This document shows positions 9,001 through 54,689 of a stretch of DNA of 64,000 nucleotides, one piece after another. This stretch comes from Squalus acanthias (taxonomy: Eukaryota). Numbering within the stretch: position 1 is the first letter of the stretch; each line of letters starts with the position of its first letter. The stretch is taken from contig CM059431.1 in the NCBI GenBank assembly GCA_030390025.1, positions 140,494,001 through 140,558,000 on the forward strand, written 5' to 3'. Made by a program: the position numbers and the translations under genes. The notes beneath the pieces were generated by a model. It searched no databases and was not told the DNA's origin. It worked only from the letters and a program-made list of their open reading frames with translations.

Positions 9001-9517
9001 GAAATGGAGAACCATCACGACACTATGAATGAGACAGCGGCACCGCTCCTTATTCCCAGGAGACGGGATGAGGCGGTCGGTGCAGCTTCAATCAGTCCAA
9101 GCAACATTTTCAGCAAACCTGTGAGAAAAAGTAAGGTCACCAGGAGTTCAAAAAAAACGAATCTTATCCTAAATCTGGCGGATAATCCTGTCAATTACAC
9201 GGTAGAATTAAATTAATGTCCTCGCTCTGTCACATATTAAACACGTTGATCAAATATTCTGCTTCATTATTAAACTTCATTCATCACTGACACTTTTCAT
9301 ACGAAAGGCGGAATGTTCTCATTGGGCAGGGGTCATCAGTTAACGAACTGTTGAAACGCAGGGTCAATGTTGGGTTAAGTGCCACAGGGGGAACAGATAT
9401 AGTCGCGTACCTGAGAGACTTAACAAGAACCATCTTGATGTATATGTATGGAGAGAGAACCCCAAATCTAAGTTGCAATAGGAGCTAACAGTGAATTCTA
9501 ATGTTCCAAAGCGAGCT

Positions 9518-10952
9518 CTAGTTCGTATTTCTTTCATTGTTAACCAGTCTTAGAATCAGTGTCCAGGGAGATTTCAGCAATTTCTTCAGCTCTTCTCTGA
9601 ATTTCCTCTGGGTAGCTGCAAAAATACACGGGTTTGCACAGGAGCTCAAATGCTTCAGCATGGCTCCGGTTTCAGTGGCGATATAGGCTGGGTTTGTGCG
9701 GTCGCCTCGGTAATAATTGATGTTTGTCAGTCCGGTAGTTGCAAAACTCACTACAGCTGTCAACCACAACAGTATAAAACTGCCCGATATAGCGAAGAGT
9801 AAAATGATGGATTTCCTTCTGCTCTCCATCTCTGGATCACGTTGATTCTCACTCCTCTGAGCACGGAGTCCTCTGCGGGCTCTGCTGGCCACTAAAATAC
9901 GTCTGACTGTCAAAGAATTACACAAAGCGATTAAAGTAAATGGAAGCCAAACTAGCCAGACTGTGTGAAACCAGAAGTACGCTGCACCTGGAGGTGAGGT
10001 AAAGAAGGCCACACTTGGCCGGCAGCCCCACTGCACCTTGTTCATTATTTGCTGAGGTTAATATGCAAACATCAAGGGGATGTTATTTAACAAGATCAGA
10101 ACAGAGAACGTTGTTATAATCGCGGCCGCGGTTTTCTTGGTGCAATACTTTGTTTTAAACTTCTGGCTGCAGATAACTACAAATCGGTCAAATGTGAAGG
10201 AGACGGTGAACCAGACAGACAATTCGAGGTTGCAAGTAGTCATGTACATAATGAACTTACAGACGGGAGTGCGGTACAGGAATGAAAGTGGAAAGTGATA
10301 ACTGAAGATATAATACACCATTACATTGATGATCATGACCAGTAGATCTGCTGTTGCCATGGCCACCATGTAGACAGAGATACACTTGGAAAGGCCGCAG
10401 TTTCCTCGGGAGATAATCACCATTGTCACCAAGTTCGCTGTAATAAAGAGAGAGGAGAGAAATAATGTTCCAGTGTCTGATTGAAATATATATGGGGATA
10501 CCTGTGGAGAGCATTTCACTCCATTCAATGTGATTATCCACACGGAGCAGTGTGAGAAGAGAGTTAGTTTTGGAGCCATTACCTGGGGAACCCACCCACA
10601 CATGTTAATGAGCTGCTGCAGCGCTCACTCTGCACGGGGTGACAAGACGGTCTGAAAGTCCGCTAAAATCCTTGTGTTGGAGCTTCAAAGAGCTTTATAA
10701 CATCATTAACTTGATCATATTACGGAGAACACGGAAGTGCGGACAGGCGGTTCACTAGTAGGTCCAGTCACTACTGACTGTGTAATGCTGACATCCAGAA
10801 AACGAGTTACCTTAACCAACAGGCAGTAAGAACAAGGAGATAATTAACACCGATTAACAACAAACAGGTTACAATGGCTCACCGGGGATACCGACTGCTG
10901 CGAGAATCGGGTAGTAAATCTCTTTGATCAGAAGAATAGTTGGTCGCCCCAT
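9518..10952 (-). pseudogene. Two-exon class A GPCR, GPR139/GPR142-like, with one in-frame stop
   Basis: Exon 1 is 10952-10883 (MGRPTILLIKEIYYPILAAVGIP, GTGAG donor). Exon 2 is 10437-9518 (AG acceptor; ANLVT, MATADLL, FTFDRFVVIC, SIILLFAISGSF, CANPCIFA). TAA at 10058-10060 splits two same-frame ORFs. Confidence 0.88.
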
Positions 10953-16105: not shown

Positions 16106-18560
16106 CACAGAAACATAGAAACATAGAAGATAGGAGCAGGAGTCGGCCATTCTGCTCCGCGAGCCTGCTCCGCCATTCGATGAGATCATGGCTGATCATC
16201 CAAACTCAGTACCCTGTACCTGCCTTCTCCCCATACCCCTTGATACCTTTAGCTTTATGAAATATATCTGACTCATTCTTTAATATATTTAATGAGTTGG
16301 CCTCAACTAACTTCTGTGGCAGAGAATTCCACAGGTTCACCACTCTCTGGGTGAAGAATTTCTCCCTCATTTCTGTCCTAAATGGCTTGCCCCTTAACCT
16401 TAGATTATGACCCCTGGTTCTGGACTCTCCGACCACCGGGAACATTCTTCCTGCATCTAGATTGTCCAGATCTGTCAGAATTGTATATGTTTCGATGAGA
16501 TCCACTCTCATTTTCTATACTCCAGCAAGTATAAGCCGAATCGACCCAATCTCTCCTCATATTTCATTCCTGCCATCCCAGGTATCAGCCTTGTGAATCT
16601 TCGCTGAACTCCTTCCATGGCAAGATCATCCTTCCTCAGATAAGGCGACGAAAACTGCACACAGTACTCAAAGTGTGGTCTCACCAAGGCCCTGTACAAC
16701 TGCATCAAGACATCCCTGTTCCTATACTCAAACCCTTTCGCTATGAAGGCCGACATACCATTTGCCTTCTTCAGCGCCTGCAGCACCTGCATGCTTACTT
16801 TCAGCGACTGGTGCACAAGGCCACAGAGGTCTCGTTGCACTTCCCCTTCTCCCAATCTATTGCCATTCAGATAATAGTCTGCCTTTCTGTTTTTGACATC
16901 AAAGTGGATAACCTCGCACTTATCCACGTTATATTGCATCTGGCACTCTTCTGCCCACTCACCCAACCTGTCCAAATCATCCTGTACTTTCTCGGTATCC
17001 TCCTCGAAGCACATACGCTCACCCAGCTTTATGTCATCTGCAAACTTGGAGATATTACATTTAGTTCCCTTATCTACATCATTAATGTATATTGTGAATA
17101 GCTGGGGTCCAAGGACCGATTCCTGCGGTACCCCACGAGTCACTGCCTGCCACTCGGAAAAAGACCCATTAATTCCTGCTCTCTGCTTTCTGTCCGCCAA
17201 ACCAGTTCTCTATCCAATTCAATACCTTGCCCCCAATCCCATTTGCCTTAAATTTACATGCTAATCTCATATGCGGGACCTTATCGAAAGCCTTTTGAAA
17301 GTCCAAATACACCACATCTACTGGTTCTCCCTTATCTATTTTCCCAGTTACATCCTCAAAAAATTCCAGTAGCTGTGTCAAGCACGATTTACCTTTTGTA
17401 AATCCATGTTGACTTTGTCCGATCCTGTCACTGTTTTTCAAGTGCTCAGCTATTACATCCTTTATAATGGACTTTAGCATTTTCCCCACTACCGATGTCA
17501 GGCTTACCGGTCTGTAATTCCCCGCTTTCTCTCTACCACACTTCTTTTAATAGTGGGGTAACATTAGCTACCATCCAATCCATGGGTACAGTTCCAGATT
17601 CCATCGAATGTTGGAAGATGATCAGCAATGCATCTACTATTTCTAGGGCCACTTCCTTAAGTACCCTAGGATGTAGATTATCAGGCCTTGGGGATTTATC
17701 GACCTTCAATCCCGTCAATTTCCCTAACACCATTTCCCTGCAAATACTGATTTCTTTCAGTTCCTCCCTTTCCTTGTACCCTATGTTCTCCAACATCTCT
17801 GGGAGGTTATTTGTGTCCTCCTTTGTGAAGACAGAACCAAAATATGCATATAATTGGACTGCCATTTCTTTGTTACCCATTATAACTTCCCCCGCTTCTG
17901 ACTGCAAGGGACCTACACTTGATTTCACTAATCTTTTTCTGTTCACATATCTATAAAAGCTCTTACAGTCAGTTATTATGTTCCCTGCAAGCTTACTTTC
18001 ATATTCTGTTTTCCCCTTCTAAATTAATCCCTTTGTCCTCCTTTGTTGAATCCTGAACTGCTCCCGATCCTCAGGGTTACCGCTTTATCTGGCCAATTTA
18101 TATGCCCTCTCCTTGGATCTTATGCTATCCCTAACTTCCCTTGTTAGCCACGGTTGAGTTACCCTTTTTGTTTTATTCTTATGCCACACTGGGATGAACA
18201 CATTCTGTAGTTCATCCATGCAGTCCTTGAATGTTTGCCATTGCCTATCCAACGTCAACCCTTTGAGTGACATTCCCCAATCAATCCTACCCAATTCGCG
18301 CCTCATACCATCGTAGTTTCCTTTATTTAAATTCAGGACCCTAGTCTCTGATTCAACTACTTCAGTCTCCATCCTAATGAAGAATTCTATCATATTATGA
18401 TCACTCTGACCAAGGGGCCCCGTACAACAAGATTGCAAATTAATCCTTTCTCGTTACATTATACCCAGTCTAAGATGGCCTGATCTCTGGTTGGTTCCTC
18501 GAAATATTGTTCCAGAAAACCATCCCGTAAACACTCTAGGAATTTCTCCTCCACAGTATT
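16106..18560 (-). mobile_element. CR1 LINE 'C' nested in CR1 'B'
   Basis: Has its own tail at ~16110. Frameshifted RT ORFs 16206-18438 (FADD motif). Very similar to the CR1 at 1-2003. Confidence 0.88.
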
Positions 18561-18564
18561 TTTT

Positions 18565-20426
18565 GGCTGCCATCCCAGGTATCAGTCTGGTGAATCTTCG
18601 CTGCACTCTCTCCATGGCAAGAACAGCCTTCCTCAGATAAAGTGACCAAAACTGCACACAATACTCAAAGTGTGATCTCACCAAGGCCCTGTACAACTAC
18701 AGGGTCCTTGCTCCTGTACTCGAATCCTCTCTCTATGATGGCTAACATACCATTTGCCTTCTTAACCGTCTGCTGCACTTGCATGCTTACTTTCAGGGAC
18801 TGGTGCACAAGGACACCCAGGTCTCGTTGCACTTCCCCTTTCCCAATCTATTGCTGTTCAGATAATAATCTGTCTTCCTGTTTTTGCCACCAAAGTGGAT
18901 AACATCACATTTATCCACATTATACTGCATTTGGCATGTATCTGCAAATCACTCAACCTGTCCAAATCATACTGGAGTTTCTCTGCATCATCCTCACAGC
19001 ACACACGCCCAACCAGCATTGTTTCATCTGCAAACTTGGAGATATTACATCTACTTCCCTCGTCTAGATCATTTATATATATTGTGAATAGCTGGGCTCC
19101 TAGCAACGATCCCTGCGGTACACCACTAGTCACTGCCTGTCACTCGGAAAAAGACCCGTTTATTCCAACATTTTGCTTCCTGTCTGCCAATCAGTTCTCT
19201 ATCCAAGACAGTACCTTACTACCAATCCCGTGTGCTTCAACTTTGCACGCTAATCTATTTTGCGGGACTTCATCGAAAGCCTTCTGAAAGTCCAAATACA
19301 CCACATCCACTGGTTCTCCCTTATCTATTCTACCAGTTACATCCTCAAAAAATTCCAGTAGATTGGTCAAGCATGATTTACCTTTTGTATATCCATGTTC
19401 ACTTTGTCCGATCCTGTCACTGTTTTCCAAGCGCTCTGCCATTACATCTTTTATAATGGACTCTAGCATTTCCCCCACTACTGATGTCAGACTTACCGGT
19501 CGAATATTCCCCGTTTTCTCTCGGCCACCTTTTTTAAATAGTGGGGTTACATTAGCTATCCACCAATCCATGCCAACTGTTCCAGAGTCTATAGAATTTT
19601 GGAAGATGACCAGCAATGCATCTACTATTTCGAGGGCCACTTCCTTAAGTGCCCTAGGATGTAGATTATCAGGCCCTGGGGATTTATCGGCCTTTAATCC
19701 TGTCAATTTCCCGAACAGCATTTCCCTACAAATACTGAATTCATTCAATTCCTCCCTCTCATTAGACCCTACGTTCGCCGACATCTCTGGGAGGTTATTT
19801 GTGTCCTCCTTTGTGCAGACAGAACCAAAGTATGTATTTAATTTGACTGCCATTTCTTTGTTCCCCATTATAAAATCCCCTGATTCTGACTGCAAGGGAC
19901 CTACACTTGACATCACTTATCTTCTTCTCTTCACATATTTATAGAAGCCTTTACAGTCAGCTTTTATGTTCCCTGTATGCTTACTCTCATAATCTATTTT
20001 CCCCCTTTTAATTAATTCCTTTGTCCTCCTTTGCTGAATCCTAAACTGCTCCCAGTCCTCAGGTTTGCTGCTTTTTCTGGCCAAATTATATGTCCTCTCA
20101 TTGGATTTTATGCTATCCTTAATTTCCCTTGTTAGCCACGTTTGAGTCACTCCTTTTGTTTTATTTTTATGCTAAACAGGGATGAACAGATTCTGTAGTT
20201 CATCCATGCGATCTTTAAACGTTTGCCATTGCCTATCCACCACCAACCCTTTAAGGAACGATTCCCAATTCATCCTAGCCAACTCGTGCTTCATACCATC
20301 GTAGTTTCCTTTATTTAAATTCAGGACCCTAGTCTCTGAGTTAACTAATTCACTCTCCATTATATTATGATCGTTCCTCCCCAAGGGGCCTCGCACAACA
20401 CGATTGCTAATTGATCCTTTCACATT
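18565..20426 (-). mobile_element. CR1 LINE 'B', 5' part
   Basis: ORFs 18858-19133, 19191-19916, 19917-20150 and 20172-20423 are consecutive CR1 ORF2 pieces. Confidence 0.88.
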
Positions 20427-20706
20427 ACATAATAGGCTTTGTAAAAATTTGAAGCTAATGGAATGAAATGGACAGTGGCAGCATGGATACTAAATTGGCT
20501 AGGTGAAAGGAAACTGAGAGTAGTCGTGAACGGTTGTTTTTCGGACAAGAGGACGCTAGATAGTGGTGTTCCCCAGGGGTCCGTTCTCGGACCACTGATT
20601 TTCTTGATATATATTAATGACTTGGACGTTGGTGTTCAGGGCACTATTTCAAACTTTGTAGACGACACAAAACTTGGAACAATAGTGAACAATGCGGAGG
20701 ATAGAG
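20427..20706 (+). mobile_element. CR1 LINE 'A', middle part, target of the ERV insertion
   Basis: ORF 20463-20711 (SGVPQGSVLGP, FVDDTKL) is cut at AGAG (20703-20706) by the LTR. Confidence 0.88.
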
Positions 20707-22373
20707 TGTAAGGGTTTTTGTGTGTGTGACACGCCTGAGGCTCTGTGCGTAGCCTGGGTGCTCGTGCGAGGTTAGGCCTTGTTGCCTGTTCTGGTCTCCA
20801 GCCAGCCTGGTATCACTAGACACCTGTGAGTGGTTCGACCCACTCGCCCTTACGGTTCTGACACTGGACTTAGATGCGAGAGCAATAACGCAGAGAAAAC
20901 TCAGGTAGACCCGGTTGAATAGTGCGAAATGGAAAATCTTTATTGCATATTATTCAAGATTACGAAATACATGTCATAAGCACAGATTAATGACAGTACA
21001 ATCTTACACGCAGGTATGTAACTAATTTTAGGGAAACGAGGAGCGCATGACACATCGAAAAAGGGGGCACACATTACAATTATCCTTAAAACTTCAACCC
21101 TCCCCTATTAATACCTGACCTAAACTAGATTTGTAGGATCGAGACTCATGCTCACCACTCGTGATAACTCGGAGAATTCCGAAACTCTGCTCGGATGTTT
21201 TTACCGCAGCACCTGACCACCCACGTGTTGATTTGGGGTCTCTGTACCCCACTTGTTTACACGTTTCTGCTCCGGCTAGCAGGCTGGACCGTCTGCTGTC
21301 ATGAAGATCTGTGTTGTCCTCGGAGTTCCGACACGACTCGAAAAAATAGTCTTCCTGTGCCCTCACGCCAGTTTGTAAAGCTCAAAGAATGGTCTTCCTG
21401 GGCAAGGAAAGTGTTTATTCGACCTACAGGCGCGGTCGGGGCTTACTGACCGTGGCGATACGTATGGTCGTCTTCTTCTCTTCTCATCTCATCTCATCTC
21501 ATCTCATCTCATCTCATCTCGGGCCTTCGGTTCCAACACCGTTTACCGACTTCTCGGGATGGTGTGCCCGTTTCAAGGCTTCACAGCCCAGTTCCACACA
21601 GATCTTCGCGGCAAGCCACGAGGTCGATCCTGGCGGATCAGAAAGTTCAATAGTCTTCTAGCAAGTCGAGCAGCAAGGAGTCAAGAGACAGCGTCGCAGG
21701 CGAAGAGGCAAGAGACAGATGCAAGAGCAAGCGGCAAGAGACAGATGGACGGTTGTACCTTTACAGTTATAGTGCTGCAATTCCTCTTTTCCCGCCCAAT
21801 CTTAATGTCTTTTCTTTTGTCAGGGTTTTGGCGCTCAAACTTCTTGTATAGGGTGATCTCCGTTTTAATGGGTTTCGGTGATACTTGTAACTGTCTGAGT
21901 ACCCGTTAATACTTCTCCCATTGTGTAACCAGTCAGTATTCTCCCTGGAGGGCTTTTGGGGCTTCCAAATGTTTCTGTAACTACCCGCAAACGGCTCTCT
22001 CATCGTAGAGTCGTGGGGATTTTGCATATTAATGTCTCTGGATGGGTTCTTGATCGCTCTGTACAATAGCCCTTATTCGCAGCTGGGAGACCGATTCCAG
22101 TATTTATGTGTAAAATGCAAACCCATTATGTCTTGTGAATTATCTCAAATGTGCTGAGTCTTGTCCGATCTCGCACAAATGTTTATTGGAACGCCATCTT
22201 GTCTGCTTATCGAAAAGTCTAGAATGTTCTGCCACGAGGCGTGGCGGCCATTTTACAGGATGCTTGTGTCCACTTTGAAAACCTGACAGCATTCTGCTGA
22301 AATAAAGCTGTTTGTACGAAACTATGTGTCTCCTCCTTATTTATAAAATCGCGATAATATTGCGAATTCTACA
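20707..22373 (-). repeat. 3' LTR of ERV (1667 bp)
   Basis: TGTA...TACA termini. Near-identical to 32215-33870. Minus-strand AATAAA at 20939-20944. Internal (TCTCA)n microsatellite at ~21480-21520. Confidence 0.95.
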
Positions 22374-23228
22374 AGAGATAGACTTCAGGAAGACAGGCTG
22401 GTGAAATGGTCGGACACGTGTCAGATGAAATTTAATGCAGAAAAGTGTGAAGTAATATATTTCGGTAGAAAGAATGAGGAGAGAACATATAAACTAAAGG
22501 GTACGATGCCAAAGTGGTTGCACGAATAGAGGGACCTGGGGCTATGTTTGCACAAATCGTTGAAGGTGGCAGGGCAGCTTGAGAAAGCAGTTACAAAAGG
22601 ATTACGGGATCGTGGGCTTCATAAATAGAGGTATAGAGTTAGAAATCAAGGACGTTATGATGAACCTATATAAAACACTGCTTCGGCACCAACTGGAGTA
22701 CTGTGTCCAATTCTGGGCACCACACTTTAGGAAGGATGTGAAGGCCTTCGAGAAGGTACAGAAAATATATACGATAATGATTCTAGCAATGAGGGTCATC
22801 AGTTACTTGAATAGACTGGAGAAGCTGTGGTCATTCTCCTTGGAGCAGAGAAGATTGAAAGGAGATTTAATAGAGGTGTTCAAAATCATGAGTGACTGGA
22901 CAGATTAGTTAGAGAGAATCTGTTCCCATTGACAGTATGTTCGAGAACCAGAGGACACAGATTAAGGTGATTGGCAAAAGAACCAAAGGCGACAAGAGAA
23001 AAAACTTTTTTACGCGGCGAGTGGTTAACATCTGGAATACACTGCCAAAATGGAGTTGGAGGAGTATCTGAGGGGGGGAAATGCAGAGCTAAGGGGAAGC
23101 GGCAGGGGAGTGGGACTAGCTGAGAGTCGGTACTGTCTTGATGTGCCGAATGGCCTGCTTGCGTGCTGTAACCATTCTATGGTTCTATGTAACTGACTAG
23201 ATGGGCTGCTTCACTTTCTCCTTTTCCT
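22374..23228 (+). repeat. Duplicated host flank (CR1 'A' 3' part), copy lying inside the provirus
   Basis: About 99% identical by eye to 33871-34724. Starts with AGAG and ends at ...ctttctccttttcct, where it joins ERV sequence just downstream of the env stop. Confidence 0.93.
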
Positions 23229-23272
23229 TCCGAGGCGCACGTGGCAAACGGGAGTGACGCCATTTTGTCTGG

Positions 23273-25624
23273 TTACACGGTGCTTTCATCGTGCACGCGC
23301 ACGTAGCGTTCTCGCCACTCTCCCGTGTTTTCGTTCTTGGTGAGGCGTTTGCCTCTTTTACAATGCACGACCAATAAGTATACCACAATAAACACTTGGC
23401 ATACAACTAAAATGTGGGAGGCTATCCTAATCCAGGAAGGCACTTCAATGTTGGTGAACAGATTCCACCATGGTGGAATTACTATGTCCAGAATTTCTGT
23501 CCCTATCTCGACAGTCTTCTGTTCTAGTGTGTAAAAATGTTTTTGTGATACCGCGACGGCTTTTAAAAGCTTGGTGAGGTGTTCAGGGAGAGGGGGAATG
23601 AGGTATCCGAAATGCGCGACGAATTGCTGCAGGTCGGTGAAGTTCTCTTTTACGGTAAGATGAACTGTGGATGGTTCAGGGATTGGGACAATTCGCTGTT
23701 GTGCTACTTGAACTTCCGCCCTGGGTTTGAAACAGAAACTGCTGTCACTCACCGGACACCGGCTACGGTTTCCATGTTGGTAGTGTTGCGCTGCAGTGGT
23801 AACACAATATGTTCCACCCCCGATGTATGCTACCTGTGGAGGCACATGATCTTGTGCCATTGCCTCCATGGTGCAATTCATGGGCTTGGCGCCAGCCGTT
23901 CTGAACCCGCACTGTGGTGTTAAAAAGGCATTCAAGTGCTGGGGACACAGTATTATGTGTGCTCCCCTGCCACGACAACCAGAGAGATCTGTACCTGTCA
24001 TCGTTTGCTCCCAGCGGATGATGTAAGGTGGAACCGCTGCATAGCGAATGTGGGCTCCCCCCTGAATGACACCAATGTTCTCTACTCGATACACCGGGGC
24101 GGGCTTTGTTGTGTCGCCCAAAACCGGCATACGTAACACTATACCCATAATGGTATGGTTTGATCGTCCGCAGTCCACGGGGACTGGGTATGCTTCTGAA
24201 GCTAGCCTGAGCTGGCACGGGCTTAATGTGTTCTGAAAAGGGTTGAGCGCCTGCAGGTGTTTGTTACTTATCCAGGACGGGACCAAACCTTGTTTTAAAT
24301 CCTCCAAATTACTGCAGCCCTCACCGAGTAACCACGCCCCGTAAAGCACGCACACCTCATTCTGCGCAGCCTGATTGGACGCATTCCGATCTTCCCTGAT
24401 CAGGGCATTTACCGTTCTCGCGTGTTTCTCCAGCTCTGCTTTAATTTCCTTTAAGTGGAGAGTCATGGCCTGGTCCTCGTGTAACCCAGACCCAACCACC
24501 TTATTTTCATCTGTGAGAATGCTTTTTAATTGCGTTTTTAAGCCATTAATCTGGGTCTGCAGCTCCACGCTGTCTAGAGCATTGACCACAGATGTACCTG
24601 TGTTGAAAGCAGTGAACGCGTCGTTCACAACACCCCTTCTTTGCCTCCCCACCTGATCCAAAACTTCATGTGGTGCGGTGTACAAACTTGTTTTATCAAT
24701 TTCCGTGAAATCGAACTCATAAAATTGTCTGAACATCTTGGTCAACAGGACCTGATACAACTGTTCCGTCTTTTTGGGGCACCACTCTGGTAACCGCACC
24801 TCGGTGAGATTTAAAATCACCGAGGCCACCACGTAATGTACCCCCTGAAATAGTATCTGGTCTGTTGGGACCAGTACCAAACCATTCCCGGGTCCCTTAC
24901 TGGTTTTAGGGCACCCTTCTTCCTTAGCTAGAACCACCGGAATCGTGGGCGGGGCTTTGCGTGGGCGCGTAATGAGTTCAGTGGCATTTACTGGGATCGG
25001 GGAGTATGGAGCTCCGCACCCCCTGGTGCTCGCATCCCACCTCATCCCCTGTCCGTTATCCTGCCATTGATTGATGAAAAATATGGAGATGCCTTTGGGG
25101 CAAACGTACTTTGACCCCCACATACATACATAAATTCCCTCATCCGGTTCCCACCATTTGTCCCAACAGACTCGCACTTGTCCGTTTGTCCCCGTAATTG
25201 TCCGATGGGTATTATTACCCAGTCACTCCCACTTGACCGAAGAGTTCCTCATGTTTTTGCTCAGCTTTCGTAGCCACCACCATCGGCTCAATGGGACATT
25301 CCCGTTACAAGTCAAACAAATCCGTTTTCCGACGGTGACGCTGATTCTGGGTGCGATGATCCTTACTTTGGGGCACAGTAAAGAAGTCTCTTGGTAGGCA
25401 AACCCCGATGTGCTGGAATACTCAGTGGAGTTTGTTCCCAGCCATCCTGGCCACCTTCCCTTGTGGAAATAGGTGGTGGTCTCCTCCGCCTCTCGTCTTC
25501 CGGTCCCATCCACCGTGATGGGGGCCGTGTCCCCGGAGCATCCAAACACCACGACATCCTTGGTGTGGCCTCGATAGGCCAATCCACATCCGATTGCCGC
25601 GAGCAATGCTAGAATTCGTTCCAT
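23273..25624 (-). pseudogene. env: ERV envelope glycoprotein (~783 codons; one in-frame stop at 25223-25225)
   Basis: Signal peptide MERILALLAAIGCGLA, then an Ig-like motif set. Furin site RQRR (24635-24646) is followed by a hydrophobic small-residue peptide, a heptad repeat, a Cys-rich region, a C-terminal TM helix and a short tail. The two ORFs are in the same frame. Confidence 0.88.
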
Positions 25625-25913
25625 CCTTCCTTGGTTCCTATGATCAGATAGAATGAGGTAGCCAGCCTCGCAAGAGTCTCTGGCTTTTGCGAAGGGTGAG
25701 CGGGTCCCCTGACCTCGCCTCACGTAAGAAGACATGTGTGCTGGATAAACTTTAACTAATCCTATCTCTAAAACTCCCATCATTTTACCTCTTTCTATTA
25801 AGCAAAATTAAACTACCGACTTAAACCGATTTAAAACTATAACCTCATCTAAAACTATAAACTTATTCTTAACCTTAAACTGTACAGCGCCGCCCGTTCC
25901 CAGGGCGGCCCAT

Positions 25914-28900
25914 TTAAATTCTGAAAAGGCTGCCACGAGCTTTTCCCGACGGTGGGAGGGCATTGACCCCTCCCTTTGATCTGCCGCAGCCTGTTGCTGC
26001 TGCGCTGGGACTGGACTCTCCCTGGGCTGCCTTAGACTTGAGCCTACGCCTTGGGACACTCTGGGGACTTGACCATATCTTCCTGGGCTGGGTTATCCGA
26101 CCTGACCTATGGAGAGTTACCGAGGGCAGGAACTCCAGGACCGACGGACCGGGTTCCGAGACTTCCACCGTGGTGACCTGTGGTCCCACCACAGTCGCTG
26201 GCTCCGCCTCCCCTGACTCCGCCTCCCTGAACTCGGGTTCTGCAGCTTGTGGCACCGCCCTACTTGGCCCAGTAGGCGGCCCTTCACTCGCAGTCCCTAC
26301 CTCCCTCGAGGGCAAAACGTTCAAGGCGGGCGGCTCGGGCTCTGAGCCTTCTATCGCCACGCCCTGTGGTCCCCCCACAGCGGCTGGCTCCGCCTCCCCT
26401 TGCTCCTCCCCACTGCGTTCGGGACCTGCAGCTTCGGCCTCCACCCTGTGTGGATCTCTATCTGCAGCCCCTGTCTCCCCTATACCTGAATCGGTGGCGA
26501 CCCTTTCGTCCTCCGATTCCAACTCCTCCTCGCTTGTGTCACTATCTTCGTCGAGCTCCTCGAACTCTTCCTCATCTGACTCCCAACCCCCAAAAAATAT
26601 CTCACATTTTTCTAGGATGTCCTCTCCCCTGATGCAAGCTGCTTTGCCTGCCTGTGTGCCCTGTGGCCCTACCTGGGGCTGCGACTCCCCACTCGCCGGT
26701 TTGGCCCCTGTGGTTGGCCCTTGTGCACCTGGCTTATACAGTTTGCACTGATTTACGTGGAACCACTTAGTGCGCCGGGGTACCTTTACGGCGTATACCA
26801 TGGGACTCGCCTTATCTACAATGCTGTAGGGTCCCATATACAGTGGTTCCAGACTCCCTACTCTGGCGTAGTTTCTGACCATGACCTGGTCTCCCACTTC
26901 CCACTCCCGCGTTTTGCGGGGTTCCAGCAACAGGCGATTGCCCTGATGCTACCTTCCCATGTTCCCAGCCGCCTGCTCATAAACCTGCTTCAGGCGCACC
27001 AAGAGGGTCTGGACGAACTTGTCCCTGCTTATCTCTTGGAGCTGACACACAGTGAGCACCGGCGCTAGCACATGGGTGGGGGTTCGCATGATCCTCCCAG
27101 TCATCACCTCGTGCGGGGAGTACCCCGTACTTTTCGACTGACTGGCCCGGACCCCCATGAGGACTAAAGGCAGAACCTCTGCCCATTTTTGGGGCGAGTT
27201 CATAGTCTCTTTCCTCAATTTCTCCTTCAGGGTCCGGTTCATACGTTCAACAATCCCGGATGACTGGGGATTGTGTGCTACGTGCCATTTCCCTTCAATG
27301 CCCAAAAGCATGAGGGTGGTCTGCATCACCTGGCCGGTGAAATGACCCCCTTGGTCTGACTCCACAAAACGGGGGAGTCCCCACCGCGAGAACACCTCCC
27401 GGACCAAGATTTTTGCAGTACCCAGCGCCGTAGCTGTTCTACAGGGGAAGGCTTCCACCCATTTGGAAAACACATCCACCAAGACGAGGCAGTATTTATA
27501 GCCTCCCTGGGTGGTGGGCAGGGGCCCTATAGAGTCGATCTGTATCGACTGCCATGGTCCCTCTACCCTCCTGACGTGCCCCATGGGCACTTTCCTTTTC
27601 TGGGGGTCTGGGTTGTTTGCAGCGCACACGAGACAGCTTGCACAGAACTCGCGGACCTGTTCCCTGAGCCCCGGCCACCATCCCGCTTGCTCTACCCGTT
27701 GCCAGGTAACCTCGGGCCCGGGGTGCCCTGCCCCCGGTCCCTCATGAGCCAACTGGAGGAATTCCCTCCTGTGCTGCTGCAGCACAACCCACTGCTCCTC
27801 GCGGAACAGCATGCCTTCCTTAACGGAGAGGGTTGCCGTACTGTACGGACCCTCTACCTGCTTCCCCTCAGCAAGGGTTCTGAGGACTGCTTTTAGGGCG
27901 GGATCCTGGTTCTGGACGGTCTTAAGGTCTAGGGGCAATGCTACCCTGGTGTTCCCGGGATTCCCGTCCCTGCCTTGGATCGCTGCCACGGGTCTGGGCC
28001 CATAGGGGTCCCAGAAAATGCCGTTGCGGGCGCCCTCCCTGGCTAGCGCATCCGCCTGCTGATGCACTCCCCACGGGGCTCTGTGGAGGAGTGAGCCTTC
28101 ACCTTATGGATGAAAATCTCCCCTTCCTCCCCTACTGCTGCTAGGATCATTTCCAGCAAGGGCTTCACCGTTAAAGGTCGCCCGTCCGCGGAGGTATATC
28201 CACGGCGGGACCAAATGGCCAGGTATTCCGTACACGAATTGCATGTGAACATACTGTCCGAGCAAATCGTGTATGGGGTTGGGAAAATTTCTGGGTGGGT
28301 AACGACGTACACCACTGCAGACAGCTCAGCCTGCTGCACGCTCATGGTGCTGGGGAGCTTAATCGCCAGGGCAAGGTTTGCCGCAGGGTCATAAACTCCA
28401 CACCCTGTGTGTCGTTCGCCAGCGGACACTGTGCTGGAACCATCAACATAAATCTCGCGCCCAGTGGGATGTATCCCGGCCCGCAAACCTATGTTGACTT
28501 CCCACACCCCTTCCACCGAACACTGGTGGGCTGTACCGGGGTATACCAAATTGGCTGCAAGCCTGGGCTCGCAAAGACCTTTAACTCTAAGATCCATCTG
28601 GGAAAGAAGAAGGGTCCAGCGCGCAATACGCACGCTACTTACGGTCCCATCTTTAATCCTCCCATCTAGAAGCATCTTAGTTGGTGTGTGATGGGTGAGG
28701 AGAGTGATGGGAGAGAGCCCTGTGAAGATCGCTGATCATTTCACAGCCCAATGCGTGGCTAAAAGGTGCCTTTCGCAATTGGAGAAACTTCTCTCCACAT
28801 CCGTTAACACCCTGGACGAATAGACAACCGGCCTCAGCTTGCCGTGACGCTCTTGGAGCAGCACAGCGCTCAAGCTGTCCCCGCTGGCAGCTACCTCCAG

Positions 28901-30404
28901 GAAAAACTCCTTCCCCCCATCTATGGCCCCTAAAGCTGGCGCGGTCTGCAGATCCCTTTTTAACTTCTCGAAGGCTGCCTGGCAGCCCTCGTCCCAAGAC
29001 CACTCCACTCCCTTATGGAGGAGTCGGAGCAGCGGCGCCGCTGTGGCCGCATAGTCTTCGATAAAATCCCTGCAGTAACCGGTCAGTCCCAAAAAGGACC
29101 TCACACCCCTTATGGTGTTGGGAATCGGTAACTCTTGCACCGACTCCCTCCTAGCCTTATCTATGGCTCTTTCCCCAGCGCGAATGGTCAGCCCCAGGAA
29201 TTTTACTTCCTGCTGACCGATACGTGCTTTCTTAGGGTTCACTTTAAAACCCTTTCTCGCTAGCAGCTCCAATAACTCGGCCAGCAGTGGTCCATGCTCC
29301 TCCCTTGAATCCGTAAATAGGAGCAAATCATCCACGTACTGCACTATCTAATTGGGCTGACTAAACTCCTTTAAACTTCCTGCCATACACTGATGGAAAA
29401 TACTGGGGCTGTTGTGGAAACCCTGTGGCAGACAGTTCCATGTGTATTGTTGTCCTTTGAAAGTAAAGGCAAACTTGTACTGGTCCTCTCGCCGCAGCGG
29501 GATGGACCAAAAACCGTTCGAGATATCCAGCACCGTGAACGTGGTCGCGGACGCTGGGATACTCCCTATTAGGTCAGCGACTGCTGCTACCGTGGGCGCG
29601 CAGGCGGGAATGTTACTGTTAAGGACTCTGTAGTCCACCGTGGCCCTCCACGAATTATCCGGCTTCCTAACCGGCCATAATGGGGAGTTCACGTGTGTGG
29701 CTATCGGCCTCAACACGCCCTGCTGCACCAAGGAGGACATTGCTGTCTCCATATCGGGTTCTGCTTCTTTGGGGAAGTTATACTGCTTTTGGGGCCGGGT
29801 CATGGGGTCCCCATCTACGCTGACCTCAAACCCGGTAACCCTCCCACAATCGTGCTTGTGGGTTGCAAACGCGTGCATATTATCTGACACGTACGCTTGC
29901 ATGTCCGTTGGGACATCCGCGACCATAAGCCCGAGGTCGTAGCCTCCGGATGGCTTCATGGTACACAGGGCCCCTGTTTCTTCCTCCCCCGGAATTACCA
30001 CTACCTCGCCTTCTCCACCCTTGGTCCCCCAGAGACAGTGATTCCTGAGGTCCACAAGGATCCCGTGCCCCGATAGGAGATCGGACCCGAGGATACCTCT
30101 CCCACCCCCCTCTTGCCATTTCATCAGTATGCACTTCCACGTGGTGTGGAGCGCTCCTAAATGAATGGCTAGCGGAAGGGAGAACGCGCCAGCCTGTTCT
30201 TTTCCCGTGAACCCCGCTAATGTGAATGGGACCTTGGTAGATAGCGGTGAGTCAAAAGGGCTATCTGTATGAATCACGGTGCAAGAAGCTCCCGTGTCCA
30301 ACAAATAACTACCCTTCTGTTGCTCTACCTCCATCTCCACCAGGGGTTCGCTTCCACGCATCATAGCTGAGCGGACACAGGTAGACGGGCTGCGCGGGCT
30401 CTAG
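25914..30404 (-). pseudogene. pol: ERV Pol (PR-RT-tether-RNase H-IN + long C-terminal extension); 3 stops, 2 frameshifts
   Basis: PR LLDTGAS. RT LDISNGFW, LPQGFHNSP, YVDD. RNase H YVDGS/AEL/SDS/KVKAH/ADALA. IN HHCC, IDSIGP, ESDQG, VERMNRTLKE, GPY. Stops at 29348, 28736 and 26949; frameshifts near 30347 and 28065. Confidence 0.95.
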
Positions 30405-32138
30405 TCATTGGGTACTTTTGGACGGGGCTGTGGCACCTGCGGGGCCGGTAGCAACCGCCACCCTTCCATGCACACTCATGAGGGTGCGCATGGCTCCCAA
30501 CACTGATTCGATCGCGTCGGGATGGATGGGTGCACTAGCTCCCCTATCAGAGACAGGCGCCTGGGCTCGGACCACCGGATTTTTATCCCTGGAATCCTTC
30601 CAAGGGTTCCTGCAGTTCTTACGCCAGTGCCCCGTCTTCCCACACCCGTAAGAAGCATTGCTGGCCTGCGGAGCGCGGTTACCCTCCTGATGCCACTCCT
30701 TTTGAGCCGGGGCTGCGGGTCGTACCTCATGCACCTTTCCCTTAAGGGGACGTGCTCCCGTACTCCTGGTATTACGGTACCCTATCGTGAGTCAATTTAG
30801 GACCGACTCCTCTGTAGTGGCGGGGTCAGTGGGATCAAACCACGCTTTTGCCTGCTCCCTGACGGCTGGCAAACTGTTGGCTACTATACACCTGAGCCAA
30901 TGAGTTAGACCGGCGCCGTCCAAATCGGTGCGCTCTGGCGCACCTGGGCAGCTACGCTGGTATACTGGCCACAGCCTGTTGGCGAAAACCTTCGGGGGTT
31001 CTCCCTCCATCTGCACTGTTTGTCCTAGTCTAACGAACGGACCTTCATCGTCCATTCCCAACACTTCTAGGACCTCATCTCTTAGCTCCCCATAGGTATT
31101 AGTTCCCCTCTTGCTCTCGTCTGAGAGACACTGAAGGATCGAACTATCTAGTGAGAATAACAGCATTTTTGCTTTTTCTCCATCGTCGCAGCCGTTAATG
31201 GCTGCGGTTTGCTCTACTTCCCTGAAATGTACGGAAGGGTCGTCTGACTCGGCCAGCTTCCGTACGTGACTGATCATAACCCTCAGCTGGTGTGCGCTGT
31301 GAGGCAACACAAGCTGGTTGAGGAGATCCCCCTCTGCCCCATTGATTCCGTTCGGGCCCCTTTTGAAACCCGTGACCGGACACAACGGTCCCGGCTTCAC
31401 TTCTACCTCAGTGGGCTCTTTCTTTACCTCTACCACTTCCTCCCTCACCCAGGTTGCCGAATAGCTGGGTGGCGCGGAGGGCATAGTGGCTAATACTTCC
31501 TCTGCTTTGTTCGGTGGGGATTTCTGAAATCCCTCATCTACTAGCGGCTGGTGTGCTGACGGGCTGATAAGGCACACAATGCCGTGCGCTTTGTTCACGG
31601 CCCTTTTAAGGTGCTCTATCTCTCTTTGGCAGACGCTGTGGTCGGCCCCCTGAAATTTATCCTCGAGGGCCATCTTATATGCCGCCCTAACCCCCGTTAA
31701 GCTCTCTTCCTGGGCTTTTATTTGGGCAGCTAGGGGGGCACATCGTTCCTTTAATCTACCCTCACTTAACTTTGCCTCAGTGACCTGGCACTCGAGGTAA
31801 TCTATTTTTGTTTCATGGTGGTTGGCGACTAACTGGCGTTCTTGATGCAACGCATTTAAAGTCGTGATGAGCTGCTGCCCCCCCGCGACCTTCTCGTCCA
31901 TTTCCACCACTAAACTCTTGATCTGAGCTGCCTGCGCTAAGATGACCTGGTCCGAAATTTGGACTTGTCTTTTATAGCACATCAGCCAGACCGCTTTCTC
32001 CACTGCCTTTTTATGTTCCTTGCTATCTGTCCACCTCTCGGCTGCCTCTAGTGGACGCTTATCCACCAGCAGGTCACTTATCCATTTCTTAGTCAAATTC
32101 ACTTTTCCAAACACATAATCTGCTATTCTCTCTTCCAT
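30405..32138 (-). pseudogene. gag: ERV Gag (coiled coil, late domains, capsid-like region, CCHC knuckle); one in-frame stop at 30792-30794
   Basis: ATG lies ~54 nt after the PBS. The two ORFs are in the same frame. Contains PSAPPSY and (S)YGCGKTGHWRKNC, a knuckle with its first Cys mutated. Confidence 0.88.
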
Positions 32139-32191
32139 GACATTTCACCCATTCATACCAGGGTCTAACACATTATTCTCTCGCTGCCAGT

Positions 32192-32209
32192 GTCCTGCCG
32201 CGGTCGCCA
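32192..32209 (-). promoter_or_regulatory. Primer binding site, tRNA-Arg
   Basis: Minus strand TGGCGACCGCGGCAGGAC, 5 nt after the 5' LTR. Complementary to ...GTCCTGCCGCGGTCG-CCA, which I recognise as a vertebrate tRNA-Arg(TCG) 3' end. Confidence 0.85.
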
Positions 32210-32214
32210 TTTTC

Positions 32215-33870
32215 TGTAAGGGTTTTGTGTGTGTGACACGCCTGAGGCAATGTGCGTAGCCTGGGTGCTAGTGCGAGGTTAGGCCTTGTTGCCTGTTCTG
32301 GTCTCCAGCCAGCCTGGTAGCACTAGACACCTGTGAGTGGTTCGACCCACTCGCCCTTACGGATCTGACACTGGACTTAGATGCGAGAGCAATAACACTG
32401 AGAAAACTCAGGTAGACCCGGTTGAATAGTGCGAAATGGAAAATCTTTATTGCATATTATTCAAGATTACGAAATACATGTCATAAGCACAGATTAATGA
32501 CAGTACAATCTTACACGCAGTTATGTAACTAATTTTAGGGAAACGAGGAGCGCACGACACATCGAAAAAGGGGGCACACATTACAATTATCCTTAAAACT
32601 TAAACCCTCCCCTATCAATACCTGACCTAAACTAGATTTGTAGGATGGAGACTAATGCTCACCACTCGTGATAACTCGGAGAATTCCGAAACTCTGCTCG
32701 GATGTTTTTACCGCAGCACCTGACCACCCACGTGTTGATCAGGGGTCTCTGTACCCCACTTGTTTACTCGTTTCTGCTCCGGCTAGCAGGCTGGACCGTC
32801 TGCTGTCATGAAGATCTGTGTTGTCCTCGGAGTTCCGACACGACTCGAAAAAATAGTCTTCCTGTGCCCTCACGCCAGTTTGTAAAACTCAAAGAATGGT
32901 CTTCCTGGGCAAGGAAAGTGTTTATTCGACCTACAGGCGCGGTCGGGGCTTACTGACCGTGGCGATACGTATGGTCGTCTTCTTCTCTTCTCATCTCATC
33001 TCATCTCATCTCATCTCGGGCCTTCGGTTCCAACACCGTTTACCGACTTCTCGGGATGGTGTGCCCGTTTCAAGGCTTCACAGCCCAGTTCCACACAGAT
33101 CTTCGCGGCAAGCCACGAGGTCGATCCTGGCGGATCAGAAAGTTCAATAGTCTTCTAGCAAGTCGAGCAGCAAGGAGTCAAGAGACAGCGTCGCAGGCGA
33201 AGAGGCAAGAGACAGATGCAAGAGCAAGCGGCAAGAGACAGATGGACGGTTGTACCTTTACAGTTATAGTGCTGCAATTCCTCTTTTTCCGCCCAATCTT
33301 AATGTCTTTTCTTTTGTCAGGGTTTTGGCGCTCAAACTTCTTGTATAGGGTGATCTCCGTTTTAATGGGTTTCTGTGATACTTGTAACTGTCTGAGTACC
33401 CGTTAATACTTCTCCCATTGTGTAACCAGTCAGTATTCTCCCTGGAGGGCTTTTGGGGCTTCCAAATGTTTCTGTAACTACCCGCAAGCGGCTCTCTCAT
33501 CGTAGAGTCGTGGGGATTTTGCATATTAATGTCTCTGGATGGGTTCTTGATCGCTCTGTACAATAGCCCTTATTCGCAGCTGGGAGACCGATTCCAGTAT
33601 TTATGTGTAAAATGCAAACCCATTATGTCTTGTGAATTATCTCAAATGTGCTGAGTCTTGTCCGATCTCGCACAAAAGTTTATTGGAACGCCATCTTGTC
33701 TGCTTATCGAAAAGTCTAGAATGTTCTGCCATGAGGCGTGGCGGCCATTTTACAGGCTGCTTGTGTCCACTTTGAAAACCTGACAGCGTTCTGCTGAAAT
33801 AAAGCTGTTTGTACGAAACTATGTGTCTCCTCCTTATTTATAAAATCGCGATAATATTGCGAATTCTACA
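32215..33870 (-). repeat. 5' LTR of ERV (1656 bp)
   Basis: TG...CA termini, adjacent to the PBS, flanked by AGAG. Differs in length from the other LTR by two TCTCA units and one T. Confidence 0.95.
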
Positions 33871-34724
33871 AGAGATAGACTTCAGGAAGACAGGCTGGTG
33901 AAATGGTCGGCACGTGTCAGATGAAATTTAATGCAGAAAAGTGTGAAGTAATATATTTCGGTAGAAAGAATGTGGAGAGAACATATAAACTAAAGGGTAC
34001 GATGCCAAAGTGGTTGCACGAATAGAGGGACCTGGGGCTATGTTTGCACAAATCGTTGAAGGTGGCAGGGCAGCTTGAGAAAGCAGTTACAAAAGGATTA
34101 CGGGATCGTGGGCTTCATAAATAGAGGTATAGAGTTAGAAATCAAGGACGTCATGATGAACCTATATAAAACACTGCTTCGGCACCAACTGGAGTACTGT
34201 GTCCAATTCTGGGCACCACACTTTAGGAAGGATGTGAAGGCCTTCGAGAAGGTACAGAAAATATATACGATAATGATTCTAGCAATGAGGGTCATCAGTT
34301 ACTTGAATAGACTGGAGAAGCTGTGGTTATTCTCCTTGGAGCAGAGAAGATTGAAAGGAGATTTAATAGAGGTGTTCAAAATCATGAGTGACTGGACAGA
34401 TTAGTTAGAGAGAATCTGTTCCCATTGACAATATGTTCGAGAACCAGAGGACACAGATTAAGGTGATTGGCAAAAGAACCAAAGGCGACAAGAGAAAAAA
34501 CTTTTTTACGCGGCGAGTGGTTAACATCTGCAATACACTGCCAAAATGGAGTTGTAGGAGTATCTGAGGGGGGGAAATGCAGAGCTAAGGGGAAGCGGCA
34601 GGGGAGTGGGACTAGCTGAGAGTCGGTACTGGCTTGATGTGCCGAATGGCCTGCTTGCGTGCTGTAACCATTCTATGGTTCTATGTAACTGACTAGATGG
34701 GCTGCTTCACTTTCTCCTTTTCCT
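33871..34724 (+). mobile_element. CR1 LINE 'A' 3' part (original flank of the ERV)
   Basis: Continues the CR1 broken at 20706 (LEYCVQFWAPHFRKD; tail ttctatggttctat) and runs on into unique sequence. Confidence 0.9.
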
Positions 34725-53951: not shown

Positions 53952-54689
53952 GTAAGTGGGAGGGACAGAGAATGAGTTTGGATTATTTAAACATCACAGA
54001 GCTGACAGGATATCAGATCTTAGAATCAGAGAATCTTACACAAGAGAAACACGCCAAATAGGAAAGAAATGGATAAAACTGAAAATATTGTGAATCTGAA
54101 ACAATGATATGAAGAGGTGAAAATACCCAGCGGATCCGTCAGAATCTGTACAAAGGACAGGGGAACGGTTCGTCTATAACACTTGTGTGGACTGAAAACA
54201 AAGGGAAACAGTTTTAGTGGGACTGGGAAAAGGAGAGATCAGAGGCAAAAGACAGGGATTAAAGGGAGGGTCATGAGTTTACTTACCGGGAAACTACTTG
54301 ACGTAAATTAAGGAACGATCATCTGTGGCGTAAATGATAGACATTTCAAGAACAAAAACAAAAAGGTAAAATGCTTAAAATGTATGAGAACCGAACAGGA
54401 AAACTAACTCCCAAAAAATGAGAATTGAAAACCCGACGCTGTGCAGGTTTTTCCTCCCTCTCCATCACCGGGGGTCAATTCCAACTTCGGCAAAGACTCT
54501 ATACCGCAGGTGGAACCTGCCGTGGAGCGTCACTCCCCGGGAGAGCACTTCAGGAAATTACAGCAAGCAGCCTGTACATTTCTGTCAGTTACCTTTAATG
54601 GAATAGAACTAAATGGAAATGATAATCGGGCAGGGTGTATAATGACGGTCGACCTGCTACCAACTTTCCCACATAATCTAGGTAATTTA

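Follow-up and report, generated by a model that had tools for sequence, protein, structure and literature searches.

Which retrovirus left the provirus described here, and what kind of envelope protein (Env) did it carry? The element lies in a 64,000-nucleotide stretch of the genome of the shark Squalus acanthias (GenBank assembly GCA_030390025.1, contig CM059431.1, positions 140,494,001 to 140,558,000 of the forward strand; hereafter the window). An original prediction, made from these letters without database searches, saw an endogenous retrovirus (ERV) that was either a lokiretrovirus or a new basal relative, with an Env resembling viral fusion (F) proteins. The provirus comprises 13,164 bp on the minus strand. 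Its exact ends, 20707 and 33870, are those named in the prediction, and the target-site duplication AGAG stands on both sides. We consider it likely that a simple retrovirus of the snakehead retrovirus (SnRV) type left this defective germline copy in a long interspersed nuclear element (LINE), that its Env is F-like, and that it belongs to a young family whose env gene is under purifying selection. To the known SnRV-like lineage the family adds a new member, young and abundant. The assignment to lokiretroviruses is not supported: the reverse transcriptase (RT) signature is of the SnRV type, and of the named viruses SnRV comes closest, by RT as well as by Env.

The nearest relatives of the shark Pol (41-50% identity) are frog proteins named 'NYNRIN-like' by NCBI and fragments from Latimeria. 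They are followed by a tier of gamma/epsilon-like proteins with 28-32% identity. Among the sequences of the PDB, Pol matches MLV/XMRV RT (8e-69 for that of murine leukemia virus, MLV), the foamy virus protease-RT (PR-RT; 2e-61), and Ty3 (8.5e-42). Reference retroviral genomes for phylogeny were obtained from IMG/VR, 18 loci by Pol alignment and 32 loci by the string of the tRNA-Lys1,2 primer-binding site (PBS), and were labelled according to the Pfam families found in gag and env. RT domains were extracted using a hidden Markov model made from our own alignment; in 71 domains, 200 or more of the 254 profile positions were covered, and clustering of these at 85% identity resulted in 46 rows. 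The partial RTs of P0014, P0015, P0021, P0029, P0031, P0033, P0034, and L028 were dropped, and L042 gave no RT match.

In the maximum-likelihood tree of these 46 rows (LG+C20+F+G4), rooted on five gypsy-like rows, a branch with 100/100 support parts the latter from the other 41. The shark element, four frog elements, P0009, and L011 stand outside a clade (98/93) that contains all foamy, gamma/epsilon, beta, and lenti rows. The shark RT is thus found neither inside the foamy clade nor in the gypsy-like group, as the original prediction had anticipated. The separation from the gypsy-like rows and the presence of two ribonuclease H (RNase H) domains agree with its placement of the element in the Retroviridae rather than in the Metaviridae. 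L011 is the next row to the shark element and the nearest exogenous RT. The shark RT shares 45% identity with L011 and 52-54% with the frog elements; the value for every other representative is 39% or lower.

L011 (IMGVR_UViG_638276818_000001) has a length of 10,688 nt. This equals the length of the SnRV GenBank record as given in PMC12193657, and all four motif strings printed under '>SnRV' in the supplement of Wang & Han are contained in the L011 Pol. L011 is therefore snakehead retrovirus. In SnRV, as in three of the three other shark copies inspected, gag and pol share one frame with a single stop between them. The Pol proteins of SnRV and the shark element both include RT, a tether, RNase H, an H2C2 integrase zinc domain, and rve, and both Gag proteins have a CCHC knuckle and weak coiled-coil matches. 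The two differ in that SnRV possesses extra open reading frames (ORFs) and an Env of 1,134 aa whose N-terminal part is long, whereas the shark element has only gag, pol, and env (783 aa).

The SnRV-like clade (Hayward 2015; 'clade Huo' of Xu 2018) is cited in PMC4977317, PMC8922424, and PMC12193657 and is known, according to reviews, from coelacanth, zebrafish, amphibians, and reptiles. Among the elephant shark ERVs (CmiERVs), lineage I is reported to cluster with SnRV in a Pol phylogeny (Han 2015, PMC4422223). The original prediction had weighed the chance that the family was already described from sharks; this proved true for the lineage, SnRV-like ERVs having been reported from elephant shark in 2015 (PMC4422223). 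CmiERV lineage I and the shark element, likened here by description only, have a chondrichthyan host and the clustering with SnRV in common. The CmiERVs are old (long terminal repeat (LTR) divergence 0.024-0.033) and few (PMC4422223), while the shark family counts at least dozens of near-identical copies with open frames.

The sequence details of Env listed in the original prediction are all present. The C-terminal subunit that follows the furin-type site RQRR consists of 453 aa and includes 13 cysteines, a heptad helix, the motif GLVPSWIS, and a Cys-rich block. CX6CC does not occur in Env, and no match to PF00429 was obtained. An AlphaFold2 (AF2) model was calculated from an alignment of 46 Env sequences, from which chimeric gene models and a bacterial chance match were left out. 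The model has a mean predicted local distance difference test (pLDDT) score of 60.9, a confident core at residues ~235-310 and 390-650, and helices at residues 343-374, 383-444, and 679-711. A Foldseek search against the PDB, the check proposed in the original prediction, gave 228 matches at E ≤ 0.001, and all rows listed were F proteins of paramyxo- or pneumoviruses. The best of them was F of human parainfluenza virus 3 (8.6e-11), followed by the F proteins of respiratory syncytial virus, parainfluenza virus 5, Langya virus, Newcastle disease virus (NDV), Nipah virus, and Hendra virus. In BFVD, the best matches were glycoproteins of arli- and lispi-type mononegaviruses, baculovirus F, and paramyxovirus F0. 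The Env proteins of two walleye epsilonretroviruses, walleye epidermal hyperplasia virus 1 (WEHV-1; 6e-10) and walleye dermal sarcoma virus (WDSV; 8.9e-10), were also recovered and, lower down, feline foamy virus Env (1.9e-5). Env is accordingly predicted to be a class I fusion protein with the scaffold of paramyxo/pneumovirus F; the F-type Env of the original prediction is upheld by the modelled fold, with no sequence match to PF00523.

The shark Env and the F proteins share the predicted fold, the domain order, a furin-type site, two heptad helices, and a C-terminal anchor. Judged by eye, the fusion peptide of F proteins is far more hydrophobic than the segment that follows the cleavage site in the shark Env, GVVNDAFTAFNTGTSVVNAL. 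Unlike F proteins, the shark Env has an extra N-terminal region, is carried by a retrovirus, and would act without a separate attachment protein.

A profile made from Env and two close relatives was searched among 1.84 billion proteins and retrieved 51 proteins at E ≤ 0.001. Ten of these were looked up: two had no name, and the other eight all came from sharks (Mustelus, Chiloscyllium, Heterodontus, and Pristiophorus) or frogs (Pelodytes, Mantella, Bombina, and Xenopus). A word-based homologue search with Env returned four matches, all chondrichthyan and including the skate Rhinoraja; two of them are chimeric gene models. PF00523 matched none of 16 Env relatives at E ≤ 1, and one of the 16, a chimeric F-box model, showed a weak Baculo_F match (E 0.0011, below the cut-off). 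The annotated gene models P0003, P0039, P0061, and P0029, from other cartilaginous fishes and further sources, fuse pieces of Env or Pol to host-gene domains, namely Niban-like, cadherin, F-box, and lysophosphatidylcholine symporter domains. They are probably annotation chimeras across ERV insertions, exonisation being an alternative.

The same Env family is found in other retroviruses. By hhalign, the shark/frog Env profile aligned to the Env of SnRV (94.9%, E 4.8e-8, 336 columns) and to that of L024 (env 5962-9648; 97.0%, E 1.2e-10, 337 columns). L024 is a 12,708-nt exogenous genome that was labelled epsilon-type and groups with the epsilon-type RT rows. Residues 480-1010 of the SnRV Env, modelled by AF2 with a pLDDT of 61, had F proteins as all of their listed matches, among them NDV F at 1.5e-8. 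The walleye epsilonretroviruses join this picture through their BFVD Env models, which match that of the shark Env, and the walleye-type ('distinct') epsilonretrovirus Env thus appears to be F-like too. They differ from the shark element in that the epsilon-type RT sits with the gamma/epsilon rows, far from the shark RT, and in the much greater length of their Envs (1,229 aa). The Env of WDSV and WEHV was described as 'distinct' and devoid of gamma-type hallmarks by Hogan & Johnson (2023) and is called 'distinct' in PMC9967133, and SnRV is 'unclassified' in PMC12193657.

Our full-text search of the openly readable literature revealed no paper linking the Env of SnRV or of epsilonretroviruses to F proteins. 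In the accessible text on Viro3D, Metaviridae are named among reverse-transcribing viruses, and epsilonretroviruses and SnRV are not; the accessible text of PMC11468914 mentions neither SnRV nor Loki. As far as searched, three findings are new: the Env family takes in the Envs of SnRV and of a walleye-type epsilonretrovirus, it is F-like, and the shark ERV family is young and abundant in this genome. A broader proposal, which we put forward tentatively and hold to be somewhat short of an even chance, is that an F-type ('class Ib') Env is shared by, and possibly ancestral to, the deep-branching retroviruses of lower vertebrates. It would link Loki, SnRV-like viruses (among them a living fish virus able to replicate), walleye-type epsilonretroviruses, and, distantly, foamy viruses, with gamma- and HIV-type Envs as later replacements and the shark family as a recent, possibly active representative.

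Copies of the family in the S. acanthias genome are numerous and alike. A 601-nt probe across the end of env gave 3,924 candidates; the best 40 were scored, and 39 of these were other copies with 97-98% identity. With the 649-aa Env frame, the best 68 of 12,573 first-look candidates were scored. All were 97-100% identical, 57 of the 68 had no stop in the matched part, and 49 lay in stop-free frames of at least 835 aa. With the PR-RT frame, the best 116 of 15,625 candidates were scored; they had identities of 92-100%, and 46 of them were in open frames of at least 1,400 aa. The ratio of nonsynonymous to synonymous divergence (dN/dS) in env was 0.12 (mean dN 0.0053, mean dS 0.0437, 15 pairs). 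Contigs of the runs X1, X2, X5, and X9 cover the whole provirus (23229-33870 assessed) and showed no joint between the leader and env, although contigs are by nature silent on transcription. The word-depth of contigs, a poor measure, was about 100 times that of pol in the LTR, and in env (23229-25713) it was about 5-10 times that of gag-pol (2-3 times in X9). This excess may reflect many solo LTRs together with deleted copies that retain env, or transcripts if the runs are RNA.

The family would thus have spread recently and widely with env under purifying selection, which points to reinfection rather than to purely intracellular copying. The opposite possibility is that the family multiplied inside cells as a retrotransposon, the open env frames being a mere sign of youth and Env having no role in the spread. 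Copy numbers are very high for an env-bearing ERV, if the 12,573 and 15,625 first-look candidates are taken as a guide, and the LTR word-depth would be compatible with a transposon-like burst and many solo LTRs. The low dN/dS between copies and the lack of stops in most scored env copies, despite 2-3% divergence, speak against it; both would be seen if most differences came about while the lineages were replicating and required Env. We therefore regard purely intracellular multiplication as rather unlikely.

The lokiretrovirus question was judged mainly by RT. The window copy contains the RT motifs NCLPQGFHNSPSIFH and QYVDDLLL, so that both YVDD and LPQGFHNSP, on which the original prediction had drawn, are indeed present. 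LPQGFHxSPxIFH and QYVDD(L/I)LL are common to SnRV, the shark element, and the latter's relatives in frogs and coelacanth. The five Loki RTs read in the supplement of Wang & Han (Loki-Lch, -Str, -Cne, -Aro, and one unnamed) have NRCPFGYxNSPAEFN and (I/L)IYVDD(I/V)L instead. Of 46 RT residues compared by eye, 35 are common to the shark element and SnRV, and 25 to the shark element and Loki-Lch. P0011 and P0014, the relatives from Xenopus and Latimeria, differ from the printed Loki-Xtr and Loki-Lch Pol sequences, and none of five motif strings taken from P0011, P0100, and the window RT occurs in the Wang & Han supplement. These frog 'NYNRIN-like' and Latimeria matches had been considered as probable lokiretroviruses; the printed Loki-Xtr and Loki-Lch sequences ruled this out.

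The back-translated Loki RT motif also had no match in the 3.7-Gb host genome: as a degenerate DNA pattern it gave 0 forward and 0 reverse matches and 1 in the control, a narrow test by which absence is unproven. Wang & Han screened chondrichthyan genomes and marked none as Loki-positive. Their table lists Callorhinchus and Rhincodon without a Loki mark, and Orectolobiformes with three genomes screened and none positive (PMC7947760). The remark in the original prediction that cartilaginous fishes were not among lokiretrovirus hosts is correct on this record.

Several traits nevertheless recall lokiretroviruses. An F-like Env was reported for Loki (PMC7947760), and the printed Envs of Loki-Xtr and Loki-Lch are colinear with the shark Env in four motifs, a comparison made by eye and without statistics: GPxxG(I/L)(M/V)L, the furin site, (E/Q)G(R/L)(I/V)P, and (W/I)LCP...CG(L/F)...C. 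The Loki-Xtr Gag likewise begins with a coiled-coil segment, the shark RT stands at the base of the retroviral tree, and the frog relatives bear the NCBI name 'NYNRIN-like', while the Loki integrase is said to be close to CGIN1/NYNRIN (PMC7947760). Dual RNase H, an F-like Env, a coiled-coil start of Gag (in the shark, non-significant Pfam matches), and hosts among lower vertebrates are therefore common to both. The Envs are not built alike in all respects. That of Loki matches PF00523 by sequence (E 2.2e-7; PMC7947760) and is compact (~560 aa), its F2-like part being short and RPKR being followed by a hydrophobic fusion peptide; in the shark Env the N-terminal region is large, and no Pfam family is matched. 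Taken together, these points make it very unlikely that the element belongs to a lokiretrovirus of cartilaginous fish or to a new sister lineage at the base of that group.

A foamy-like (spuma-related, class III) ERV of cartilaginous fish would also explain an F-type Env. Foamy Env shares the F fold as a class 'Ib' fusion protein, according to Fernandez et al. (2024, PMC11468914), and nine foamy Envs gave a weak hhalign match to the Env family (39.9%, E 3e-4, 133 columns of the Cys-rich head), in addition to the BFVD match of feline foamy virus Env. The PDB match to foamy PR-RT comes close to that of MLV RT, and a spumavirus Gag cluster is among the leads for Gag in the protein atlas (0.85, below the line of 0.9). 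However, the shark RT lies outside the foamy clade, which has 100/100 support. The shark proteins match none of the foamy Pfam families PF03408, PF03276, and PF20672, whereas PF03408 is matched by nine of nine foamy Envs at E = 0. The shark PBS corresponds to tRNA-Arg and not to the tRNA-Lys1,2 site by which foamy genomes were fetched. The shark Gag has a CCHC knuckle, which is not known from foamy viruses. Its gag-stop-pol layout suits read-through; foamy viruses express Pol from its own mRNA. The additional Env region is N-terminal in the shark, while the receptor-binding domain of foamy Env sits as an insert between both subunits, according to PMC11468914. A foamy-like origin is highly improbable on this evidence.

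A recent capture of an F gene from a shark paramyxovirus by an SnRV-like gag-pol element, for which one could cite the paramyxovirus-like endogenous elements reported from sharks, ray-finned fish, and amphibians (PMC11089739) and the paramyxovirus F proteins among the best structural matches, is extremely improbable, since the occurrence of the same Env family in SnRV, in one exogenous genome of the epsilon type, and in elements of frogs, sharks, and skates means that it long predates the shark family, and since identity to F in the structural alignments is only 6-16% and PF00523 does not match the shark Env.

The interpretation as an SnRV-like retrovirus with an F-like Env has to be weighed against a number of adverse points. 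In the best tree, the shark, frog, P0009, and L011 rows form a basal grade and no supported clade; when these seven rows were forced into one clade, the tree was 11.1 lnL units worse, a borderline result that was not rejected by the approximately unbiased test (p = 0.067). The gypsy outgroup sits on a long branch, the end branch of L011 is long as well (1.15), and the tree was made without published Loki, Odin, ERV-L, CmiERV, or SnRV-like ERV sequences. The BLASTP comparison of the shark Gag with the L011 Gag was non-significant (E 0.27). With regard to Env, the AF2 models are of middling confidence, the first ~234 residues of the shark Env are unmodelled, and TM-scores in the structural matches are low (0.2-0.5). 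By sequence, the shark Env matches no Pfam family at E ≤ 10, PF00523 matches neither it nor the L011 Env at that threshold, and the Env profile found no chain among PDB sequences except two ferredoxin chance matches (E 0.4-0.64). The L011 Env model is not independent, as the shark/frog family makes up most of its alignment. In the genome searches, scores were given to the best candidates only, which biases the open-frame fractions upward. The dN/dS value comes from six of ten copies, the window copy and five of the nine others, four having been dropped for gaps or incomplete alignment, and L002 and L003 are possible duplicates. Finally, the exclusion of Loki rests on a comparison of motifs and on sequences read by eye in a supplement.

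The life cycle of the intact virus may be outlined as follows. The sequence shows that reverse transcription is primed by host tRNA-Arg(TCG) and that pol encodes the dual RNase H typical of retroviruses; Gag-Pro-Pol would be produced by read-through of the single stop between gag and pol. As predicted from fold and sequence, Env would begin with a surface region of ~230 residues that is not confidently folded, followed by an F2-like strand module, RQRR, a long heptad helix, a beta-rich head held by Cys bonds, a second heptad helix, and the membrane anchor. Cleavage by furin and refolding into a helix hairpin would drive membrane fusion as in F proteins. The N-terminal region, in which weak Ig-like hints were seen (E 0.045-0.11), may serve in receptor binding.

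The PBS starts 5 nt past the 5' LTR (32209-32192) and complements exactly the 15 nt that end host tRNA-Arg(TCG) genes, together with CCA. The tRNA-Arg PBS of the original prediction is hereby confirmed and specified. A pattern composed of the T-loop and the acceptor complementary to the PBS had 435 genomic matches and none in controls. Most of the 435 matches lie inside tandem arrays with a period of ~1.62 kb, and ARAGORN called tRNA-Arg (tcg) in all three loci examined. A tRNA scan of the 64-kb window found none. Long arrays of ~1.62-kb units with tRNA-Arg(TCG) and tRNA-Ser(GCT) genes occupy ~38.99-41.88 Mb of contig C26 (loci L062-L066); the tRNA-Arg(TCG) arrays represent a very large supply of primer tRNA for this ERV family. 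The PBS of SnRV, presumably also of the Arg type, was read in L011 and differs in sequence from that of the shark element.

Table 1. Features of the SnRV-like provirus, with positions counted from the first letter of the window.
Feature	Positions	Strand	Evidence
Target-site duplication AGAG, 3' side of provirus	20703-20706	.	same 4 bases at 33871-33874
3' LTR, 1,667 nt, TGTAG...CTTACA	20707-22373	-	97.9% identity to 32215-33870; homology to other copies stops at 22373
855-nt copy of the 3' part of the 5' flanking LINE	22374-23228	-	99.1% identical to 33871-34724
env, 783 codons, ATG 25624-25622, stop codon 23273-23275	23276-25624	-	ORF, AF2 model, F-fold matches
env membrane anchor (residues 730-765), predicted	~23330-23437	-	sequence/AF2 model
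env furin-type site RQRR (residues 327-330)	24635-24646	-	sequence
env in-frame stop	25223-25225	-	sequence
pro-pol	25917-30400	-	Pfam; read-through with X; PDB sequence matches; other copies
Acidic repetitive Pol tail, end at 25917	25917-26735	-	Pol frame
SH3-like C-terminal domain of integrase	26736-26903	-	Pfam
Integrase core (rve)	27267-27557	-	Pfam
Integrase zinc domain (Integrase_H2C2)	27609-27779	-	Pfam
Catalytic RNase H (RNase_H PF00075, E 8e-16)	28082-28456	-	Pfam
Tether, degenerate RNase H (RT_RNaseH_2, PF17919, E 6.9e-22)	28739-28996	-	Pfam
RT (RVT_1)	29183-29671	-	Pfam
Protease (RVP)	30062-30352	-	Pfam
gag, ATG 32138-32136 to natural stop 30405-30407	30405-32138	-	premature stop 30792-30794; CCHC 30609-30644
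PBS TGGCGACCGCGGCAGGAC, complementary to 3' end of host tRNA-Arg(TCG)	32192-32209	-	sequence match; ARAGORN
5' LTR, 1,656 nt	32215-33870	-	pairs with 20707-22373
Target-site duplication AGAG, 5' side of provirus	33871-33874	.	matches 20703-20706

The order of a degenerate tether RNase H ahead of a catalytic one, seen by the original prediction, is reflected in the successive matches to PF17919 and PF00075. By eye, the catalytic domain retains DGSS, AELSA, CSDS, and QQADALA, and the tether has A and H at the positions of the catalytic D residues of gypsy RNase H. Other copies keep the pol frame open to ~1,496 aa. The Pol tail, ~270 residues past the SH3-like domain of the integrase, is acidic, rich in Pro, Glu, and Ser, and holds an imperfect 186-nt direct repeat (26121-26261 and 26307-26447, 72% alike).

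With respect to Gag, the original prediction of a coiled-coil protein with a CCHC knuckle stands for the knuckle, a zf-CCHC match whose Pfam E-value of 0.0035 is under the curated cut-off. The coiled coil has only non-significant Pfam matches (E 0.37-0.77). Apart from these two, Gag matched no Pfam family at E ≤ 0.01 nor in a search at E ≤ 10. In the protein atlas its best score was 0.87, below the line of 0.9, so that the matches, namely retrotransposon Gag-like proteins, spumavirus Gag, and the Ty3 capsid, are leads only.

The window copy is dead. It has five premature in-frame stops, at 30792-4 in gag, at 29348-50, 28736-8, and 26949-51 in pol, and at 25223-5 in env; two frameshifts, at the gag-pol junction (~30400-30407) and within 28043-28103 of pol; and it has lost the spacer and polypurine tract. 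The numbers of stops and frameshifts agree with those first counted from the sequence. The stop that ends gag (30405-7) falls outside the count and is natural rather than damage, because the three other copies inspected all have the single gag-pol stop.

The two LTRs claimed by the original prediction, which have the ends TGTAG...CTTACA, are 97.9% identical, with 24 mismatches and 2 indels. This corresponds to a substitution divergence of ~1.45% in the window copy (24 mismatches over ~1,656 aligned bases). The insertion target is a LINE, the reverse-transcriptase frame of which resumes beyond the provirus on the other side.

A BLAST self-comparison of the window revealed a direct repeat of 2,522 nt, 20707-23228 and 32215-34724, with 98.3% identity. 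It exceeds the length of the LTR because 22374-23228 copies the 5' flank. In nine further genomic copies (L002-L010), homology to the window runs to 22373/33870 and resumes from 23227 onward. In these copies, the place of the segment 22374-23228 is taken by an env-to-LTR spacer of ~404 nt that ends in a purine tract. The spacer is whole in eight of the nine loci, 75 nt of it are left in the ninth, and it is missing in the window copy, which consequently lacks the polypurine tract of the family, the duplicate of the flank having replaced it. The segment is probably a post-insertion rearrangement, repair templated on the 5' LTR plus flank being one possibility. The flank duplicates (99.1%) are more alike than the LTR pair. 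An unusually long LTR of 2,522 nt holding a LINE fragment was discarded as an explanation, as the LTR ends at 22373 in other copies and the LINE piece is a copy of the 5' flank at this very locus.

The rest of the window contains an inverted pair of ~2-kb repeats (1-2000 and 16120-18119, 92% identity), tandem LINE-derived duplications (16550-18372 and 18545-20360, 84-86% identity), and short tandem-repeat arrays at 54685-55146 and 60168-61183 with units of ~50 and ~39-78 nt.

For the classification of such elements, the locus would mean that dual RNase H and an F-like Env do not by themselves make a lokiretrovirus of an ERV in a fish genome. If our interpretation is true, S. acanthias harbours an unusually young and numerous env-bearing ERV family, which makes it a candidate for a germline invasion, recent or still under way, in a host group from which very few retroviruses are known. 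A fold would also be assigned to the Env type of WDSV/WEHV and SnRV, so far 'distinct' or unclassified, and a tie to lokiretroviruses and foamy viruses with their F-like Envs would be established. The nature of the envelope of the first retroviruses would then become a question that can be tested with existing viruses.

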